Assembly: GCA_913055805.1 (NCBI GenBank)
Contig: CAJXLF010000010.1
Span: 21,040 to 85,039, forward strand
Direction of reading: 5' to 3'
DNA: 64,000 nt
Source: an uncultured Salinisphaerales bacterium
GTDB lineage: Bacteria; Pseudomonadota; Gammaproteobacteria; Nevskiales; CAJXLF01
A program made the translations under genes and the position numbers. A model generated the notes under the pieces. The model was given only the letters and a program-made list of their open reading frames with translations. It did no database searches and had not been told where the DNA came from. Positions 4,921 to 22,390 of the stretch are shown here, piece after piece; positions within the stretch are counted from its first letter, which is position 1; every line of letters starts with the position of its first letter.

Positions 4921-6273
4921 ATGCAACCGAGAACCCTACTGTCCGTGGGTGTCGCTTTTACAATGGGACTATCCGCCATCCAGGCGCAGGCCAAGGTATC
5001 TGCCGAAGAAGCAGCCAAGCTGGGCGCTGAATTGACCCCCGTGGGCGCTGAAAAGGCTGCCAATGCCGACGGCAGTATTCCGGAGTGGACCGGCGGTGAA
5101 CCGCAGAGCGGCGATCCCTCGGGTATGTGGCCCGACGAGACCAAGTATGTGCCCGAGCAATCCATTGCCACCATCACCAAGGCCAATATGGCCGAGTATG
5201 CGGACAAGCTGACCGAAGGCCACAAGGCCATGCTCGAGCGCTACGATACCTACAAGATGCTGGTCTACAAATCGCATCGCCCGGTTTCTTATCCCGCGCC
5301 GATTGTGAAGGCGACAAAGGAAAACGCCACGCGCGCTTTTCTGGACGGCGACCCCGACCATATCAAGGGGGCCAAGCTGGGTTTCCCGTTCCCGATTCCA
5401 CAATCGGGCGCTGAAGTCATCTGGAATCACCGTCTGCGCTGGCGTGGTGAGGCGGTGAAGCGCTACAACAACCAGGCGATCGTGCAGCCCAGCGGCGAGT
5501 ATCAGATCAGTAAACTGGTGGAGGACGTCAAGTTCCCGTACACCGATCTGGATGACCCGCAGCCGTTTGACGAAGAAGACGACATTGCCATCTATTACCT
5601 GTCCGAAACCATTGCGCCGCCACGTAACGCAGGACAGTTCCTGCTGGGCTGGGAGCATCCCTATTCCCGTAGTGCCTGGTTGTACAACCCGGGTCTGCGG
5701 CGCGTACGCCGTGCCCCGAATGTCGGTTTCGACAATCCCTATGAAGGCACTGACGGCAACCAGTTCTACGACCAGGTGGATATGTATAACGGTTCCTTCG
5801 AGCGTTATACCTGGAAGCTGGTGGGCAAGAAGGAAGTCTATATTCCCTACAATTCACACAATATCAATCTGCCGAAACACAAGTACGACGACATCATTCA
5901 GCAGTATCACGTGAATCAGGATATTGCCCGTTACGAGTTGCATCGGGTGTGGGTGGTTGAGGCGGAACTGAAGCCCGGCACCAGCCACAGTTTCAAGAAG
6001 CGTCGCTTCTATGTGGACGAGGATTCCTGGTATGTGACCGCGGTCGACTGTTACGACAATCGTGATGAGCTGTGGAAGTTCCAGGAGGCGCATACCGCCT
6101 ATACAACGAATGTTCAGGCTGTGGGTGGCGCGCCCGAGCTGATCTATGACTTCCAGACCGGCGGCTATTTCGCGACAGCCATGATCAACGAGGACAAGCC
6201 GAATGATTTCTCGGTGGAATACAACGACAAGTACTTCACCACCCAGAATGTGAAAAAGCTCACCACGCGTTGA
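4921..6273 (+). CDS. DUF1329 family periplasmic/outer-membrane-associated protein
   Basis: 450 aa with an N-terminal signal peptide (MQPRTLLSVGVAFTMGLSAIQAQA). DUF1329-type blocks are shared with the C-terminal half of ORF 653-3247. A GAGGAG RBS lies upstream. Confidence 0.85.
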   Translation: MQPRTLLSVGVAFTMGLSAIQAQAKVSAEEAAKLGAELTPVGAEKAANADGSIPEWTGGEPQSGDPSGMWPDETKYVPEQSIATITKANMAEYADKLTEGHKAMLERYDTYKMLVYKSHRPVSYPAPIVKATKENATRAFLDGDPDHIKGAKLGFPFPIPQSGAEVIWNHRLRWRGEAVKRYNNQAIVQPSGEYQISKLVEDVKFPYTDLDDPQPFDEEDDIAIYYLSETIAPPRNAGQFLLGWEHPYSRSAWLYNPGLRRVRRAPNVGFDNPYEGTDGNQFYDQVDMYNGSFERYTWKLVGKKEVYIPYNSHNINLPKHKYDDIIQQYHVNQDIARYELHRVWVVEAELKPGTSHSFKKRRFYVDEDSWYVTAVDCYDNRDELWKFQEAHTAYTTNVQAVGGAPELIYDFQTGGYFATAMINEDKPNDFSVEYNDKYFTTQNVKKLTTR

Positions 6274-6295
6274 TCTGAAACAAGCAGTCATGTCA

Positions 6296-6329
6296 GCGGC
6301 TGCGGGCTTGCCTGCAGCCGCTTTTTTTT
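6296..6329 (+). terminator. Rho-independent terminator after the DUF1329 gene
   Basis: GCGGCTGC(6296-6303)...GCAGCCGC(6314-6321) stem followed by T8 (6322-6329). Confidence 0.75.
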
Positions 6330-6371
6330 ATTCAATGCTTCCCGCACCCGCTATTTACTGTAAGGAATGAC

Positions 6372-6860
6372 ATGCAGGAGAAACGTAAGGCCCGCTTTCC
6401 CAAAAATTCGGAAACGGTTATCCGGATGTTCAGCGACAGGGAATATTTCCTGAAGAAATATGAAATCTGCGGCGCGACCAATATCAGGCTGCTTGATCAT
6501 GAACTGGATGGCGACCGCTTCACCATTGAGATTACCCGTGATGTGCCCGCGGATGTGCCGGTGCCGGCATTCGCCAAAAAATTCATGGCGGACACCATGA
6601 CGGTGGTACAGCGTGACACCTGGGATCTCGACAGTAAAACCGGTCAGCTGCATATCGATCTGCGTGGTGTGCCGGTACAGATAAGCTGTGACATGACGCT
6701 CGAAGATGAGGGGGAGAACAGTATCCTGCACATGGATTTCGACTGCCGGGCCAACGTGCCGCTGATTGGCAAAAAGGTGGAGCGCCTGGTGCTGGACGAT
6801 GTCATCCGCAAAATCGAGGTCGACACCGAAGCGGGCATTCAATTACTGGCGAACTACTGA
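6372..6860 (+). CDS. Hypothetical protein, DUF2505/SRPBCC-like (lipid-binding fold suspected)
   Basis: 162-aa ORF with an AAGGA RBS 5 nt upstream. Size and sequence character recall DUF2505/START-like proteins. The assignment is from memory only. Confidence 0.6.
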   Translation: MQEKRKARFPKNSETVIRMFSDREYFLKKYEICGATNIRLLDHELDGDRFTIEITRDVPADVPVPAFAKKFMADTMTVVQRDTWDLDSKTGQLHIDLRGVPVQISCDMTLEDEGENSILHMDFDCRANVPLIGKKVERLVLDDVIRKIEVDTEAGIQLLANY

Positions 6861-19003: not shown

Positions 19004-19026
19004 CGGAGAGATGGCCGAGTGGCTGA
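19004..19026 (+). repeat. Orphan duplicate of the first 22 nt of tRNA-Ser (acceptor 5' strand plus D-arm 5' part); not a functional tRNA
   Basis: CGGAGAGATGGCCGAGTGGCTGA is identical to 19160-19182. After GGCTGA the sequence diverges. There is no D-stem closure, no T-arm and no 3' acceptor strand. Confidence 0.7.
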
Positions 19027-19160: not shown

Positions 19161-19253
19161 GGAGAGATGGCCGAGTGGCTGAAGGCGCTCCCCTGCTAAG
19201 GGAGTATGGGGTTTATAGCCTCATCGAGGGTTCGAATCCCTCTCTCTCCGCCA
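19161..19253 (+). tRNA. tRNA-Ser (anticodon GCT), class II with long variable arm, CCA encoded
   Basis: GGAGAGA acceptor; GCC/GGC D-stem; anticodon arm CTCCC-CTGCTAA-GGGAG; long variable arm; T-arm GAGGG-TTCGAAT-CCCTC; TCTCTCC-G-CCA. Confidence 0.95.
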
Positions 19254-19260
19254 ACTAGTA

Positions 19261-19300
19261 AGGTCTCTGCCAGTGGACGCTGGCAGAGACCTTTTTCTTT
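19261..19300 (+). terminator. Rho-independent terminator after tRNA-Ser
   Basis: 13-bp perfect stem AGGTCTCTGCCAG / CTGGCAGAGACCT with a 6-nt loop, followed by TTTTTCTTT. Confidence 0.9.
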
Positions 19301-19658
19301 CCCCTGAATTAAAGACCTGCTCTATCAAAGAGGTTTTCTAACCTCACCGAAGGTGGAGATTTTCGGCGCAAAAACCTTATAAAGCGGCCTCAGTCTTTGC
19401 AGCGGAAATGCGGGTCGGGTTACAAACTTTCCAAACTTCAAACAGGCAACCAATTCCTATTGTCCGCTCCAATAGATGCGCATCGTTTGCTTTTCAGCGC
19501 GTATCGACCCTCGACGACCCAGCTTAATAAATACGACAGTTGGCTTGATCCTGTGCATGGTGATTCGTATCCGTTCAGTCGGATTGGTATACGCTGTCCG
19601 ACCGGTTAATTTTTTGGCACAGTGGTAAAGCGAGACAGCCTGGTAGGAGGAGAGGGGT

Positions 19659-20132
19659 ATGGATCAGCGATCACGACGCATGATTGGGCATGGCGCAATA
19701 GTCATGGTATTTGGCCTGCTGGCCGGTTTTGGTCTGGTGATGAGCCTGATCGGTGGTTTTGAAATCTATCCGGGCAAGATTCTCAGCTTCGAGTTGCCAG
19801 GTGATGGCAGCGCCTGGGCGCGCACCCATGTCGGGGGTCTGATGAATGGCCTGATGGTGATGGTTGGCGCACTGGTCATACATGCCATGCAGATTCCGGA
19901 GCGTGCGGCGCGCTCGTTGTGCTGGATGCTGGTCGGCGCGGGTTATGCCAATACCATTTTCTATTGGGCTGGCATGCTGGCGCCGAGTCGGGCGCTGACC
20001 TTCGGCGCCAATCGTCTGGGTGAGAGCAATCTGGCCGGTGTGCTCGGCCTGTTGCCGGCATTTCTGTTTGCCTTTGTGACGCTCGCGGCCATGCTCATCA
20101 TCCTGCGGCATGCATTCCGGGCAGATGAATAA
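19659..20132 (+). CDS. Styrene-oxide-isomerase (StyC/SOI)-like integral membrane protein
   Basis: 157 aa, about 4 TM helices, with a strong RBS (GGAGGAGAGGGGT-ATG). It is collinear with my recollection of Pseudomonas StyC (GHG..M.F, GL.M.L.GGFEI.PG, WAR.H.G...NG, G.AN..FY, LTFG.N). His57/Asn63/Tyr102 correspond to StyC His58/Asn64/Tyr103. Confidence 0.75.
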   Translation: MDQRSRRMIGHGAIVMVFGLLAGFGLVMSLIGGFEIYPGKILSFELPGDGSAWARTHVGGLMNGLMVMVGALVIHAMQIPERAARSLCWMLVGAGYANTIFYWAGMLAPSRALTFGANRLGESNLAGVLGLLPAFLFAFVTLAAMLIILRHAFRADE

Positions 20133-20146
20133 GCCTGGTTAATACG

Positions 20147-21469
20147 ATGACCGGCCAGACAATCGAAACCGACTATCTGGTGATTGGCGCCGGCGCCATG
20201 GGCCTTGCGTTTGCCGATACGCTGCTGGATGAGTCGCGCGACTGCCATATCACCCTGGTTGATCGTCATGCCAAGCCAGGGGGGCACTGGAACGATGCCT
20301 ACCCATTCGTGACCCTGCATCAGCCAGCGGCCTTTTATGGAGTGAAGTCACGACGTCTGGGCAGTGGTGGTAGTGATCTGTCATCGCGTTCTGAAATTCT
20401 CAGTTATTTCGAACAGGCGATGCAGCGTTTGCTGGCCAGTAGCCGGGTGCGTTTTCTAACGATGTGCGAATACCGTGGCGATGGCGAAATCGTGTCGGTC
20501 GTGGATGCGTCCTGCACATATAAAGTGAATGTGCGACGGCGGTTGGTAGATGCCAGCTACATGAATGTAGAAGTGCCATCGACGCATGGGCCGCGCTACG
20601 CCGTGGATGATGATGTGACACTGATTCCGATTAACGGACTCGCGCGCCTGCAACGGCCCTGGGATAAATATGTGGTGATCGGCGCCGGGAAGACCGGCAT
20701 CGATGCCGTGCTGTTTTTGCTGGACAAGGGCGTTGCGGCAGCACGTATCCAGTGGATCGTGCCGAACGATATGTGGTTGTGGAATCGGGCGCTGGTGCAG
20801 GCGGGCATGGTCGAGATCGAGTTTGTGCGCTTTCTGAAAGCGATGACCAATGCCGCATCACAGGATGACATGTTCCTTACCCTGGAACGGCAGGGCAGCC
20901 TCATGCGCCTTGATCCAGAGCACATGCCCAGGAAGTGGCGTTGTGCGACCGTGAGCCGACCTGAATACGAGCAGCTCTGCACTGTGCGTGATGTTGTGCG
21001 GTTGGGACGGGTGCAGCGGATAACTGGCGATGCTATCGAACTGGAACACGGACGTGTGTCCAGCAATGCCCATAGCCTGTATATCGATTGCAGTGCGAAT
21101 GGTTTGGCGCCACGTGAGCCGCGGCCATTATTTGCTGACGGCCAGATCACCCTGCAATCAGTATTCATGTGCCAGCAAGTGTTCAGTGCGAGTGTGATCG
21201 CACATCTGGAAGCGATGCGCCTTTCGGATACCCAGCGCAATGCGATGTGGCAGGTGGTGCCGCATCCCGAGTGGGTCGCCGACTTTGTGCCTGGCATGCT
21301 TGGCAGTCTTGAAAATATATTGGGTGCACAGCGCCATATGCCGTTGTGGTTGCGGAGGTGTCGCTTGAATGCCGTGGCACATACGGCATTGCCGCGGTAC
21401 CTGCTCGCTGCCTTCACACTGTGGCGCGGTTTGCCGCGCGCACGTATTGCGATGGCGGCCATGCGCTAA
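20147..21469 (+). CDS. FAD/NAD(P)-binding flavoprotein, class-B (FMO/CzcO-like) monooxygenase candidate
   Basis: 440 aa. N-terminal GxGxxG (DYLVIGAGAMGLAFA), then PGGHWNDAYPFVTLHQPAAFYG, and a second dinucleotide-binding motif (KYVVIGAGKTGIDAVLFL). Starts 14 nt after the SOI-like gene. Confidence 0.8.
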   Translation: MTGQTIETDYLVIGAGAMGLAFADTLLDESRDCHITLVDRHAKPGGHWNDAYPFVTLHQPAAFYGVKSRRLGSGGSDLSSRSEILSYFEQAMQRLLASSRVRFLTMCEYRGDGEIVSVVDASCTYKVNVRRRLVDASYMNVEVPSTHGPRYAVDDDVTLIPINGLARLQRPWDKYVVIGAGKTGIDAVLFLLDKGVAAARIQWIVPNDMWLWNRALVQAGMVEIEFVRFLKAMTNAASQDDMFLTLERQGSLMRLDPEHMPRKWRCATVSRPEYEQLCTVRDVVRLGRVQRITGDAIELEHGRVSSNAHSLYIDCSANGLAPREPRPLFADGQITLQSVFMCQQVFSASVIAHLEAMRLSDTQRNAMWQVVPHPEWVADFVPGMLGSLENILGAQRHMPLWLRRCRLNAVAHTALPRYLLAAFTLWRGLPRARIAMAAMR

Positions 21470-21509: not shown

Positions 21510-21779
21510 TTAAATGATCTGGAAAATGCCAGATCGCCACATATCGCCGGGGGGCGGTGCACAAGGCCCCGGTAATGATTGAATGGTGCGAATATCGTAT
21601 CCATTAGATGACAGGTGAGTAGCGAAGGAATGAAGAAAGCAATGGAAAGAGGTGGCTTTCGTGATTCCGGAGGCATTCAAAGCTCGTCTGAAGGTTCTTT
21701 GAATCGTCGTCGAGGCGTGCCAACGAACCGGTTTGTCGTGTTCATGCCACAGCCTTATTGCCTGGGAACCACAATGCAC
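21510..21779 (-). pseudogene. Remnant of a tyrosine recombinase (integron-integrase-like C-terminal fragment)
   Basis: The minus-strand translation ...VRWHASTTIQRTFRRALNASGITKATSFHCFLHSFATHLSSNGYDIRTIQSLPGP... parallels the IntI/Xer box II region (..RHH....QRA.K.A....GI.K..T.H.LRHSFAT.LL..GYDIRTVQ.LLGH). The catalytic Arg position reads Leu. The sequence after LPGP has lost the HS..TT.IYTHV motif. The N-terminal ~230 aa are absent. Confidence 0.7.
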
Positions 21780-21823: not shown

Positions 21824-22390
21824 ATGAAAAACAGTTCTGCACGGAAACAAGAAGTACATCAGCGCAAAGTCGATTGGGGAACGCTGATCGTCGGGCTGGC
21901 GTTTACGACTTTTGCTCTCTATATCAGTTACGCTATTTACTGGAGTCAGCAGCAGCAGGCAGATGCCGCTGCGAACTTCGAGCCGGTTCTGGCAACCATT
22001 CTGGACAGCAAGATTTCGCAGACTACCCAGCGCGACGCGGCGACCGGTGGCCCTGTTCGCATATACCAGCCGCGCATCCAATACGAATACACAGTTAGCG
22101 GAGACACCTACCAATCGACTCGGTTTAGTTATCTGGGCCCCGCCTCGCAAAGCCAAGAAGACGTGCAGCGTATTATTGACCGCTATCCTCCAGGTTCCAG
22201 GCAGTCGGCATACTACAATCCGGGAAACCCGGCCGAAGCTGTGCTCCATAAAGGCAAGACAAGCATAGACTTGAAATCGGGCTATTTTTGGGTGCCGTTC
22301 ATCTTGGTTGCAGCCGGTTTATTTGTAATATTCGTGGGCTGGAAGGGTTGGATGCGTGGATGGCGACAAACTCCCGGTGTGCGGCATTAG
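21824..22390 (+). CDS. DUF3592-like membrane protein
   Basis: Start ATG 21824 (MKNSSARKQ...). An N-terminal TM helix is followed by a beta-rich middle (IYQPRIQYEYTVSGDTYQSTRFSY...SAYYNPGNPAEAVL) and a C-terminal TM helix, as in DUF3592. Its AT content is visibly higher than that of its neighbours. Confidence 0.7.
   Translation: MKNSSARKQEVHQRKVDWGTLIVGLAFTTFALYISYAIYWSQQQQADAAANFEPVLATILDSKISQTTQRDAATGGPVRIYQPRIQYEYTVSGDTYQSTRFSYLGPASQSQEDVQRIIDRYPPGSRQSAYYNPGNPAEAVLHKGKTSIDLKSGYFWVPFILVAAGLFVIFVGWKGWMRGWRQTPGVRH

Follow-up and report, generated by a model that had tools for sequence, protein, structure and literature searches.

The two genes and their products

This analysis concerns a pair of adjacent genes on contig CAJXLF010000010.1 of an uncultured Salinisphaerales bacterium, within a stretch of 64,000 nucleotides (nt) referred to here as the window. 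The first open reading frame (ORF), at positions 19659–20132 of the + strand, encodes a 157-amino acid protein resembling styrene oxide isomerase (SOI, or StyC); the second, at 20147–21469 of the same strand, encodes a 440-amino acid flavoprotein. A GGAGG ribosome-binding site lies 5' of the SOI-like ORF, whose stop codon ends at 20132, and the flavoprotein ATG is located at 20147. Given the resulting gap of 14 nt, the two genes are probably co-transcribed. The coordinates, lengths and gap are the same as those given in a first-pass annotation of this DNA, which had no database searches behind it.

The SOI-like ORF scored 177.1 bits (E = 2e-52) against the NCBIfam model NF045734, "styrene-oxide isomerase StyC" (curated cut-off, 150 bits), with all of model positions 1–147 of 147 covered, and its residues 5–154 matched the SOI structures PDB: 8pnu and 8pnv (E = 1.1e-30), well outside what chance would give. 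An AlphaFold (AF2) model, with a predicted local distance difference test (pLDDT) score of 83, contains four helices (residues 3–31, 50–77, 81–107 and 125–154) and superposes on 8pnu_A with Foldseek template modelling (TM) scores of 0.87/0.88 and a root-mean-square deviation of 2.5 Å over 154 columns; this was the sole PDB match with E < 1e-3. The Pfam family PF26512 ("SOI") is precomputed for a protein identical to the ORF product. Our local Pfam-A scan was silent on SOI, but the library appears to be without PF26512, so its silence on new families weighs little. Judged by these sequence and model comparisons, the ORF product is a genuine full-length SOI-family membrane protein with four predicted transmembrane helices. 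Family membership and the approximate number of helices had both been proposed in the first-pass annotation. The sequence blocks that it listed as shared with StyC are likewise visible in the 8pnu alignment, except that the block written as G.AN..FY is actually G..N..FY.

In the Pseudomonas enzyme, H58 is the haem ligand and is locked by T20; the N99A and Y103A mutants are inactive, N64A is impaired, and D95 belongs to hydrogen-bond network 1, with D95A being substantially impaired (PMC11374702). Four of these six positions are kept in the window protein, namely His57 (H58), Asn63 (N64), Asn98 (N99) and Tyr102 (Y103), whereas D95 and T20 are replaced by Ala94 and Gly19, respectively. The H58 and N64 equivalents are invariant in all 70 SOI homologues compared, and those of N99 and Y103 are present in every homologue linked to a flavoprotein gene. 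In the main clade, the D95 position is occupied by Thr or Ala and the T20 position by Gly or Ala; a Halieaceae clade has Ile or Val at the D95 position. The equivalence of His57, Asn63 and Tyr102 to H58, N64 and Y103, given in the first-pass annotation, therefore holds in a proper alignment, and the roles of these residues are confirmed by the structure paper (PMC11374702), but the replacement of D95 and T20 had been overlooked.

The flavoprotein has no transmembrane segment by hydropathy. It carries two dinucleotide-binding motifs, GAGAMG at residue 14 for flavin adenine dinucleotide (FAD) and GAGKTG at 179 for NAD(P)H, as the first-pass annotation had seen, together with GGHW at 45 and an ATG-like motif, ANGL, at 317. 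Pfam and NCBIfam matches are confined to the N-terminal Rossmann segment. No match to Pfam FMO-like, Pyr_redox_3 or K_oxygenase exceeded the gathering score (Pyr_redox_3 reached 13 bits against a cut-off of 30), and residues 8–95, covering the GG..W..YP segment, align only weakly with the Stenotrophomonas maltophilia flavin monooxygenase (PDB: 4a9w; E = 2e-4). Homology to StyA was not seen: FAD_binding_3 covers residues 7–43 only (E = 0.16), and no StyA structure was found among the PDB sequence matches. The AF2 model of the flavoprotein is confident (pLDDT, 92; predicted TM score, 0.92), and its best PDB neighbours in Foldseek were DiatB (top), ancestral flavin-containing monooxygenases (FMOs), SMFMO, CFMO, PAMO and CHMO, with E of approximately 1e-12.

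The family to which the flavoprotein belongs is large, with more than 5,578 clusters at 90% identity matched at E ≤ 1e-3, of which the best 120 are 51–61% identical to the window protein. It has its own invariant residues (HQP at 58–60, WRC at 264–266, DC at 314–315 and CQQ at 342–344). Its thousands of sequence clusters lie in Bacteria, with at least one haloarchaeal member, on a plasmid of Natronosalvus amylolyticus (positions 4941–6410; 39% identity). Database names of its relatives are generic ("NAD(P)/FAD-dependent oxidoreductase", "NAD(P)-binding protein" or "hypothetical protein"). These names, and the restriction of Pfam, NCBIfam and PDB sequence matches to the Rossmann N terminus, speak against assignment to a known family. 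The protein is not a characterized reductase, which would have refuted the first-pass annotation; it belongs to an unnamed family with a predicted fold nearest to the class-B monooxygenases.

Genomic partners of the isomerase and the flavoprotein

One genome per species was scanned with an alignment of the SOI clade, giving 55 SOI loci from Salinisphaerales, Nevskiales (Panacagrimonas), Oleiphilus, Halieaceae, Aeromicrobium, Maribacter, Leptospirales, Binatia and others. At 37 of these 55 loci, tblastn detected a flavoprotein homologue directly beside the SOI gene, and numerous SOI and flavoprotein database matches lie on common contigs. The pair spans Gammaproteobacteria, Actinomycetota, Bacteroidota and Leptospirales and occurs in three arrangements: SOI followed by flavoprotein (most loci), flavoprotein followed by SOI (Aeromicrobium and other Actinomycetota) and divergent (Halieaceae and relatives). 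Adjacency that survives rearrangement and phylum boundaries argues for a functional link between SOI and the flavoprotein, and the pairing made in the first-pass annotation is borne out by this co-occurrence in other genomes.

The gene maps of related loci came from a crude ORF caller with occasional antisense ORFs; key neighbours were confirmed by tblastn, motif, Pfam or PDB searches. Pfam matches among 134 neighbour genes from 51 loci included enoyl-CoA hydratase (8), PF10118 hydrolase (5), alpha/beta hydrolases (4), and aldehyde dehydrogenase, acyl-CoA dehydrogenase and FMO-like proteins (3 each). These recurrent neighbours point to lipid or hydrocarbon catabolism. Neither StyA nor StyB was represented among the 25 commonest Pfam families of this set, and phenylacetaldehyde dehydrogenase was found neither among the recurrent neighbours nor within 10 kb of the pair in the window. 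Around the window pair, the same distance of approximately 10 kb contains no styA/styB or indA/styA2B genes. A canonical sty operon is ruled out by the absence of sty genes near the window genes and among the recurrent neighbours.

Four loci from Oceanicoccus, HTCC2143 and relatives (L045, L046, L050 and L053; approximately 5.6–8.4 kb) carry two tandem SOI genes without a flavoprotein, preceded by genes for a helix-turn-helix protein and a PF10118 "metal-dependent hydrolase". In the first SOI copy, the equivalents of the haem His and Asn64 are retained, but Asn99 and Tyr103 have given way to Ile and Ser. This copy may lack catalytic activity, or act differently, as part of a hetero-oligomer.

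We find it scarcely credible that the isomerase is an ordinary StyC orthologue serving styrene or phenylacetaldehyde metabolism, with the flavoprotein as an unrelated neighbour. The score of 177 bits does pass the equivalog cut-off of 150, and NCBI records carry the name "styrene-oxide isomerase StyC" for relatives. However, the same model gives 252 and 211 bits for characterized SOIs, well above the window clade (159–177) and the Halieaceae clade (113–123), and the window protein is only approximately 40% identical to the characterized SOIs. In addition, D95 and T20 are replaced, the StyA, StyB and phenylacetaldehyde dehydrogenase partners expected of such an orthologue are missing within 10 kb and among the recurrent neighbours, and an adjacency conserved in three arrangements and several phyla is not due to chance. 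The SOI superfamily is small, with 240 representatives at 50% identity among 1.84 billion proteins. Because the NF045734 cut-off lies below the scores of the window clade, the StyC name is given to genomes that have no styrene pathway (homologues P0202, P0220 and P0236 are NCBI-named in this way), and the label is probably over-specific for this clade.

A reciprocal census was made from 80 metagenome loci chosen by the flavoprotein alone (39–56% identity). Forty-seven were informative, having at least 1 kb of flank on both sides or a visible partner, and in 13 of these 47 an epoxide-consuming enzyme adjoins the flavoprotein: SOI in five, a soluble-type epoxide hydrolase in six and a microsomal-type epoxide hydrolase in two. 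Apart from SOI and regulatory genes, epoxide hydrolases were the neighbours that recurred. The soluble-type genes (L058, L060, L093, L105, L111 and L114) are all directly downstream on the same strand, and all six products carry the HGFP oxyanion motif. Five also have the GHDWG Asp nucleophile and the cap tyrosines; the sixth, L105, ends at a contig edge. The best PDB match of a representative was the epoxide hydrolase 5ng7 (E = 1e-38). The microsomal-type hydrolases (Pfam EHN) adjoin the flavoprotein in L097, where the genes overlap, and in L107. One locus from Haliea (L051) has an epoxide hydrolase, the flavoprotein and SOI all adjacent. Well under 1% of the genes in bacteria encode epoxide-consuming enzymes, and 13 of 47 is a large excess when set against this general estimate rather than a computed background.

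In a neighbour-joining tree of 117 flavoproteins, the clade of the window protein is SOI-linked wherever the flanks permit a call, and a second, separate clade is SOI-linked too. Flavoproteins linked to SOI, to soluble-type hydrolases and to microsomal-type hydrolases are scattered over several separate positions of the tree. Two types of epoxide hydrolase and SOI all occur beside flavoprotein relatives, and what they most simply have in common is an epoxide supplied by the flavoprotein.

Relatives of the flavoprotein (37–45% identity) are also held by nine plasmid records, and in the four of these that were inspected, no SOI or epoxide hydrolase was found near the flavoprotein gene. On one of the plasmids (Rhizobium sp. 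SSA_523 pHM2; L145), the relative sits among genes for superoxide dismutase, a peroxidase-related enzyme, TlpA and MarR. In three actinobacterial metagenome contigs (L089, L094 and L113), the relative follows a sigK-like extracytoplasmic function sigma factor and an RskA anti-sigma factor, with a cyclopropane-fatty-acid-synthase-like methyltransferase upstream, which suggests envelope-lipid-related regulation in this branch of the family.

The oxidative-stress setting of the Rhizobium homologue would suit a redox partnership, in which the flavoprotein serves as an NAD(P)H reductase or H2O2 source for the membrane haem and the membrane protein acts as an oxygenase or peroxygenase instead of an isomerase. 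A two-Rossmann architecture is common to many reductases, and dihydrolipoamide dehydrogenase, thioredoxin-reductase-like proteins and Bdr were among the Foldseek matches. The title of a work cited in PMC13101518 also reports unnatural peroxidase/peroxygenase activity of SOI. We nevertheless regard such a partnership as quite improbable. SOI requires Fe(III), and reduction would abolish the Lewis acid (PMC11374702); the equivalents of N64, N99 and Y103, which position the epoxide, are strictly retained in flavoprotein-linked SOIs. Furthermore, most flavoprotein relatives have no haem partner, and the epoxide hydrolase neighbours, which are haem-free, would be left unexplained.

Baeyer-Villiger monooxygenases (BVMOs) adjoin SOI-clade genes at four loci. 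Two of these also contain the flavoprotein, in the order BVMO, SOI, flavoprotein in L007 (6.1–9.8 kb) and SOI, flavoprotein, BVMO in L013. The other two are without it: L041 (3.4–9.7 kb) reads BVMO, esterase (Abhydrolase_3), BVMO, SOI, acyl-CoA dehydrogenase, and L026 (5.8–10.2 kb) reads glutathione S-transferase, PhzS-like class-A monooxygenase, SOI, BVMO, with the BVMO 60 nt downstream of SOI, in the position that the flavoprotein has in the window. The class-A monooxygenase of L026 was dropped as evidence for an epoxidase since it is a PhzS-like aromatic hydroxylase. The BVMOs of all four loci are type I enzymes, and those of L007, L026 and L041 are genuine ones with the FxGxxxHxxxWD motif. 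A BVMO beside SOI suggests that the rearrangement product is a ketone, which then undergoes Baeyer-Villiger oxidation, and L007, L026 and L041 hint at a route from epoxide to ketone to ester; at other loci, aldehyde dehydrogenase neighbours suggest an aldehyde product. Since a type I BVMO accompanies the SOI and flavoprotein genes in L007 and L013, the flavoprotein cannot be regarded as a mere substitute for a Baeyer-Villiger enzyme.

The same loci raise the question of whether the reaction order is reversed, with the SOI-like enzyme converting an epoxide of other origin (AlkB, P450 or autoxidation) and the flavoprotein subsequently oxidizing the ketone or aldehyde in a Baeyer-Villiger-type or aldehyde-oxidizing reaction. 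In favour of this order, BVMOs and FMOs are nearest to the flavoprotein in fold, most loci have SOI ahead of the flavoprotein, and type I BVMOs adjoin SOI-clade genes in L026, just downstream, and in L041, along with an esterase. We consider this order unlikely, however, because it leaves the two kinds of epoxide hydrolase beside flavoprotein relatives unexplained (their diol products are not BVMO substrates), it would make the BVMOs of L007 and L013 redundant, and the BVMO fingerprints are missing from the flavoprotein.

A proposed epoxidation and rearrangement sequence

We hold the chances to be even that the flavoprotein uses NAD(P)H and O2 to turn a hydrophobic alkene into an epoxide, which is then rearranged to a carbonyl compound by the SOI-like haem protein. 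The module would then carry out a two-step oxidation and rearrangement parallel in function to StyAB/StyC, with a single-component flavoprotein. The first step would fall to the soluble 440-amino acid FAD/NAD(P)H protein, a member of a new family with a class-B-like fold. For the second step, strong homology suggests an SOI-like protein, presumably a trimer, with ferric haem b on His57, where the epoxide oxygen would bind Fe(III) while Tyr102, Asn63 and Asn98 position the substrate for Meinwald rearrangement to an aldehyde or ketone. Later steps would be encoded elsewhere; in other genomes they apparently involve a Baeyer-Villiger monooxygenase and esterase, or an aldehyde dehydrogenase, followed by beta-oxidation. 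The first-pass annotation had already postulated a module of an oxygenase and a Meinwald-type isomerase, and when the three outcomes that it had named as refuting were checked, none came about. SOI family membership, conservation of the pair and the epoxide hydrolases beside flavoprotein relatives speak for such a module, but the oxygenase is a putative one, inferred from its predicted fold and gene context.

The closest known system is the styrene pathway of Pseudomonas sp. VLB120 and Rhodococcus opacus 1CP (StyA/StyB, StyC and StyD). The isomerases are homologous, aligning over their full length with the same four-helix transmembrane fold, and share the haem ligand His and the Asn/Asn/Tyr network, and the proposed logic of flavin-dependent epoxidation followed by haem Fe(III) Meinwald rearrangement is the same. 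In contrast, the module flavoprotein is not homologous to the group-E two-component StyA/StyB, having its FAD and NAD(P)H domains on one polypeptide, and the module lacks StyD and StyS/StyR. The isomerase also differs, with approximately 40% identity, Ala/Thr for Asp95 and Gly/Ala for Thr20. In view of the D95 and T20 replacements and the absence of sty genes, the substrate is probably not styrene oxide. The hosts are bacteria that degrade hydrocarbons and lipids, which makes an alkene of aliphatic, isoprenoid or lipid origin a reasonable guess.

There are also parallels to pairs of epoxidase and epoxide hydrolase, such as Lsd18/Lsd19 of polyether biosynthesis and the alkene-catabolic clusters with IbcK, in that an epoxide hydrolase lies before or after flavoprotein relatives in eight of the 80 metagenome loci, an arrangement in which an epoxide would be formed and then opened. 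The epoxidases of the known pairs are class-A flavoenzymes or di-iron monooxygenases; the putative epoxidase here comes from a different, uncharacterized family.

Several observations weigh against the proposed sequence of epoxidation and rearrangement. Class-B flavoproteins usually oxidize heteroatoms or ketones and seldom epoxidize. Like the class-B monooxygenases (FMOs; the type I BVMOs PAMO and CHMO; SMFMO, PDB: 4a9w; and CFMO, PDB: 4usq), the window flavoprotein has two Rossmann-type dinucleotide-binding domains, a GG..W segment after the first beta-alpha-beta unit and an ATG-like linker motif, but TM scores against their structures are 0.45–0.57 (the best against any solved monooxygenase being only about 0.55) and identities 11–17%, and it has invariant residues of its own and no FMO-like or Pyr_redox_3 match above threshold. 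A regular-expression search for the FMO fingerprint FxGxxxHxxx[Y/F] and the BVMO fingerprints FxGxxxHxxxW[P/D] and [A/G]GxWxxxx[F/Y]P[G/M]xxxD found none in the flavoprotein, nor in a single member of the two sets of 44 and 39 aligned family sequences. The class-B likeness noted in the first-pass annotation stands for the fold and GGHW at 45 and fails for the fingerprint motifs, and the flavoprotein may not activate O2 at all. Most flavoprotein relatives are solitary, with unrelated neighbours in 34 of the 47 informative metagenome loci and in the four plasmid loci. The SOI genes directly beside a BVMO and without a flavoprotein (L026 and L041) are equally compatible with the reverse reaction order. 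The Ala/Thr at the D95 position of the window clade stands against the impairment of D95A in Pseudomonas (PMC11374702), and given this replacement the chemistry of the clade may differ from that of Pseudomonas SOI. Finally, no enzyme that consumes the carbonyl product is encoded in the window.

Setting of the module and its wider meaning

The module region is flanked by housekeeping genes (recA, recX, alaS, lysC, csrA and tRNA-Ser) and the methylcitrate genes prpC, prpB and prpR. Genes for DUF1302, CinA, DUF3592, a major facilitator superfamily transporter, an AMP-binding enzyme and WS/DGAT also lie within approximately 10 kb. As the first-pass annotation had stated, no StyA/B, aldehyde dehydrogenase or dedicated regulator is found nearby, which holds for approximately 10 kb around the module in the window. 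Identical sequence is present in Joint Genome Institute (JGI) metagenome contigs, e.g., Ga0207829_100238, and the gene content appears Marinobacter-like.

Upstream, the region is bounded by a tRNA-Ser gene (anticodon GCT) at 19161–19253 of the + strand, called by ARAGORN and by Rfam (tRNA, 60 bits). It is followed at 19260–19293, on the same strand, by a terminator-like hairpin with a 15-bp stem and a T-run, so the module needs a promoter of its own within the 365-nt spacer (19294–19658) between the hairpin and the SOI-like ORF; a sigma-70 consensus scan found no promoter on the + strand of the spacer region. An exact 23-nt copy of the tRNA-Ser 5' end (CGGAGAGATGGCCGAGTGGCTGA) is located at 19004–19026, 156 nt upstream of the tRNA-Ser gene, and is followed to approximately 19100 by a stretch rich in stem-loops, in which no tRNA is called by either ARAGORN or Rfam. 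The copy could be a decayed second tRNA-Ser or an integration or recombination scar.

Downstream, outside the module, a pseudogene fragment of a tyrosine recombinase occupies 21510–21779 of the − strand (Pfam Phage_integrase, E = 3e-9). Its best-scoring model is the integron integrase TIGR02249 (53 bits against a cut-off of 265; model positions 233–287 of 315), and the N-terminal two thirds are gone. The place of the missing part is occupied by a gene for a DUF3592 membrane protein at 21824–22390 of the + strand (Pfam DUF3592, E = 4e-16), which is also a gene call in the identical metagenome contig. DUF3592 is absent among the recurrent neighbours and is thus not kept beside the pair in other genomes. 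No attC-like site was recognized by eye near the recombinase remnant, and an integron cassette is ruled out, as the integrase remnant is directed away from the pair, with the pair located on its 3' side.

The first-pass annotation had placed the module on a small horizontally acquired islet. GC content and codon usage lend this no support: third-position GC content is 0.64–0.67 in the two module genes versus 0.70 ± 0.04 for long ORFs of the window, and their codon usage is within or barely outside the spread of other window genes. Only the tRNA-Ser and the integrase fragment speak for an islet; together they fit an old integration site. The tRNA-Ser 3' end is not repeated anywhere in the window as an attachment-site (att) duplicate, no informative direct repeats surround the module genes, and exact-protein look-ups with the flavoprotein, CsrA and PrpC gave contigs of the same arrangement or truncated ones, none being a related contig without the insert. 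The closest homologues are only 61% identical for the flavoprotein and 74–92% for SOI. The module may have been acquired horizontally.

The SOI family and its chemistry are already known, and databases already name the gene StyC. SOI is the only known Meinwald-rearrangement enzyme and is used in biocatalytic cascades, and the styrene-pathway versions, acting on aryl epoxides, are the only ones to have been studied (PMC11374702; PMC12502698). In the searchable literature, which leaves out most subscription-journal papers, we found no report of an SOI clade coupled to a non-StyA single-component flavoprotein, of a link between this flavoprotein family and epoxide hydrolases or of the altered D95/T20 network. 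We tentatively propose, in the knowledge that it is somewhat more apt to fail than to hold, that the 440-amino acid family consists of unrecognized single-component flavoprotein epoxidases repeatedly coupled to SOI and to two kinds of epoxide hydrolase, that the SOI clade rearranges non-aromatic epoxides and that together they make up a pathway, so far undescribed, from alkenes to ketones or aldehydes in marine and soil bacteria that degrade hydrocarbons and lipids.

The analysis exposes a probably over-specific database name, with "styrene-oxide isomerase StyC" being given automatically in genomes without a styrene pathway. If the proposal is true, this conserved sister clade would widen the substrate range of enzymatic epoxide-to-carbonyl rearrangement, and the two genes would constitute a self-sufficient cascade for anti-Markovnikov alkene oxidation. 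A function would also be provided for the flavoprotein family, whose more than 5,000 sequence clusters currently have no annotation beyond "NAD(P)-binding protein", with a possible bearing on how hydrocarbon-degrading bacteria metabolize long-chain or branched alkenes and their epoxides.

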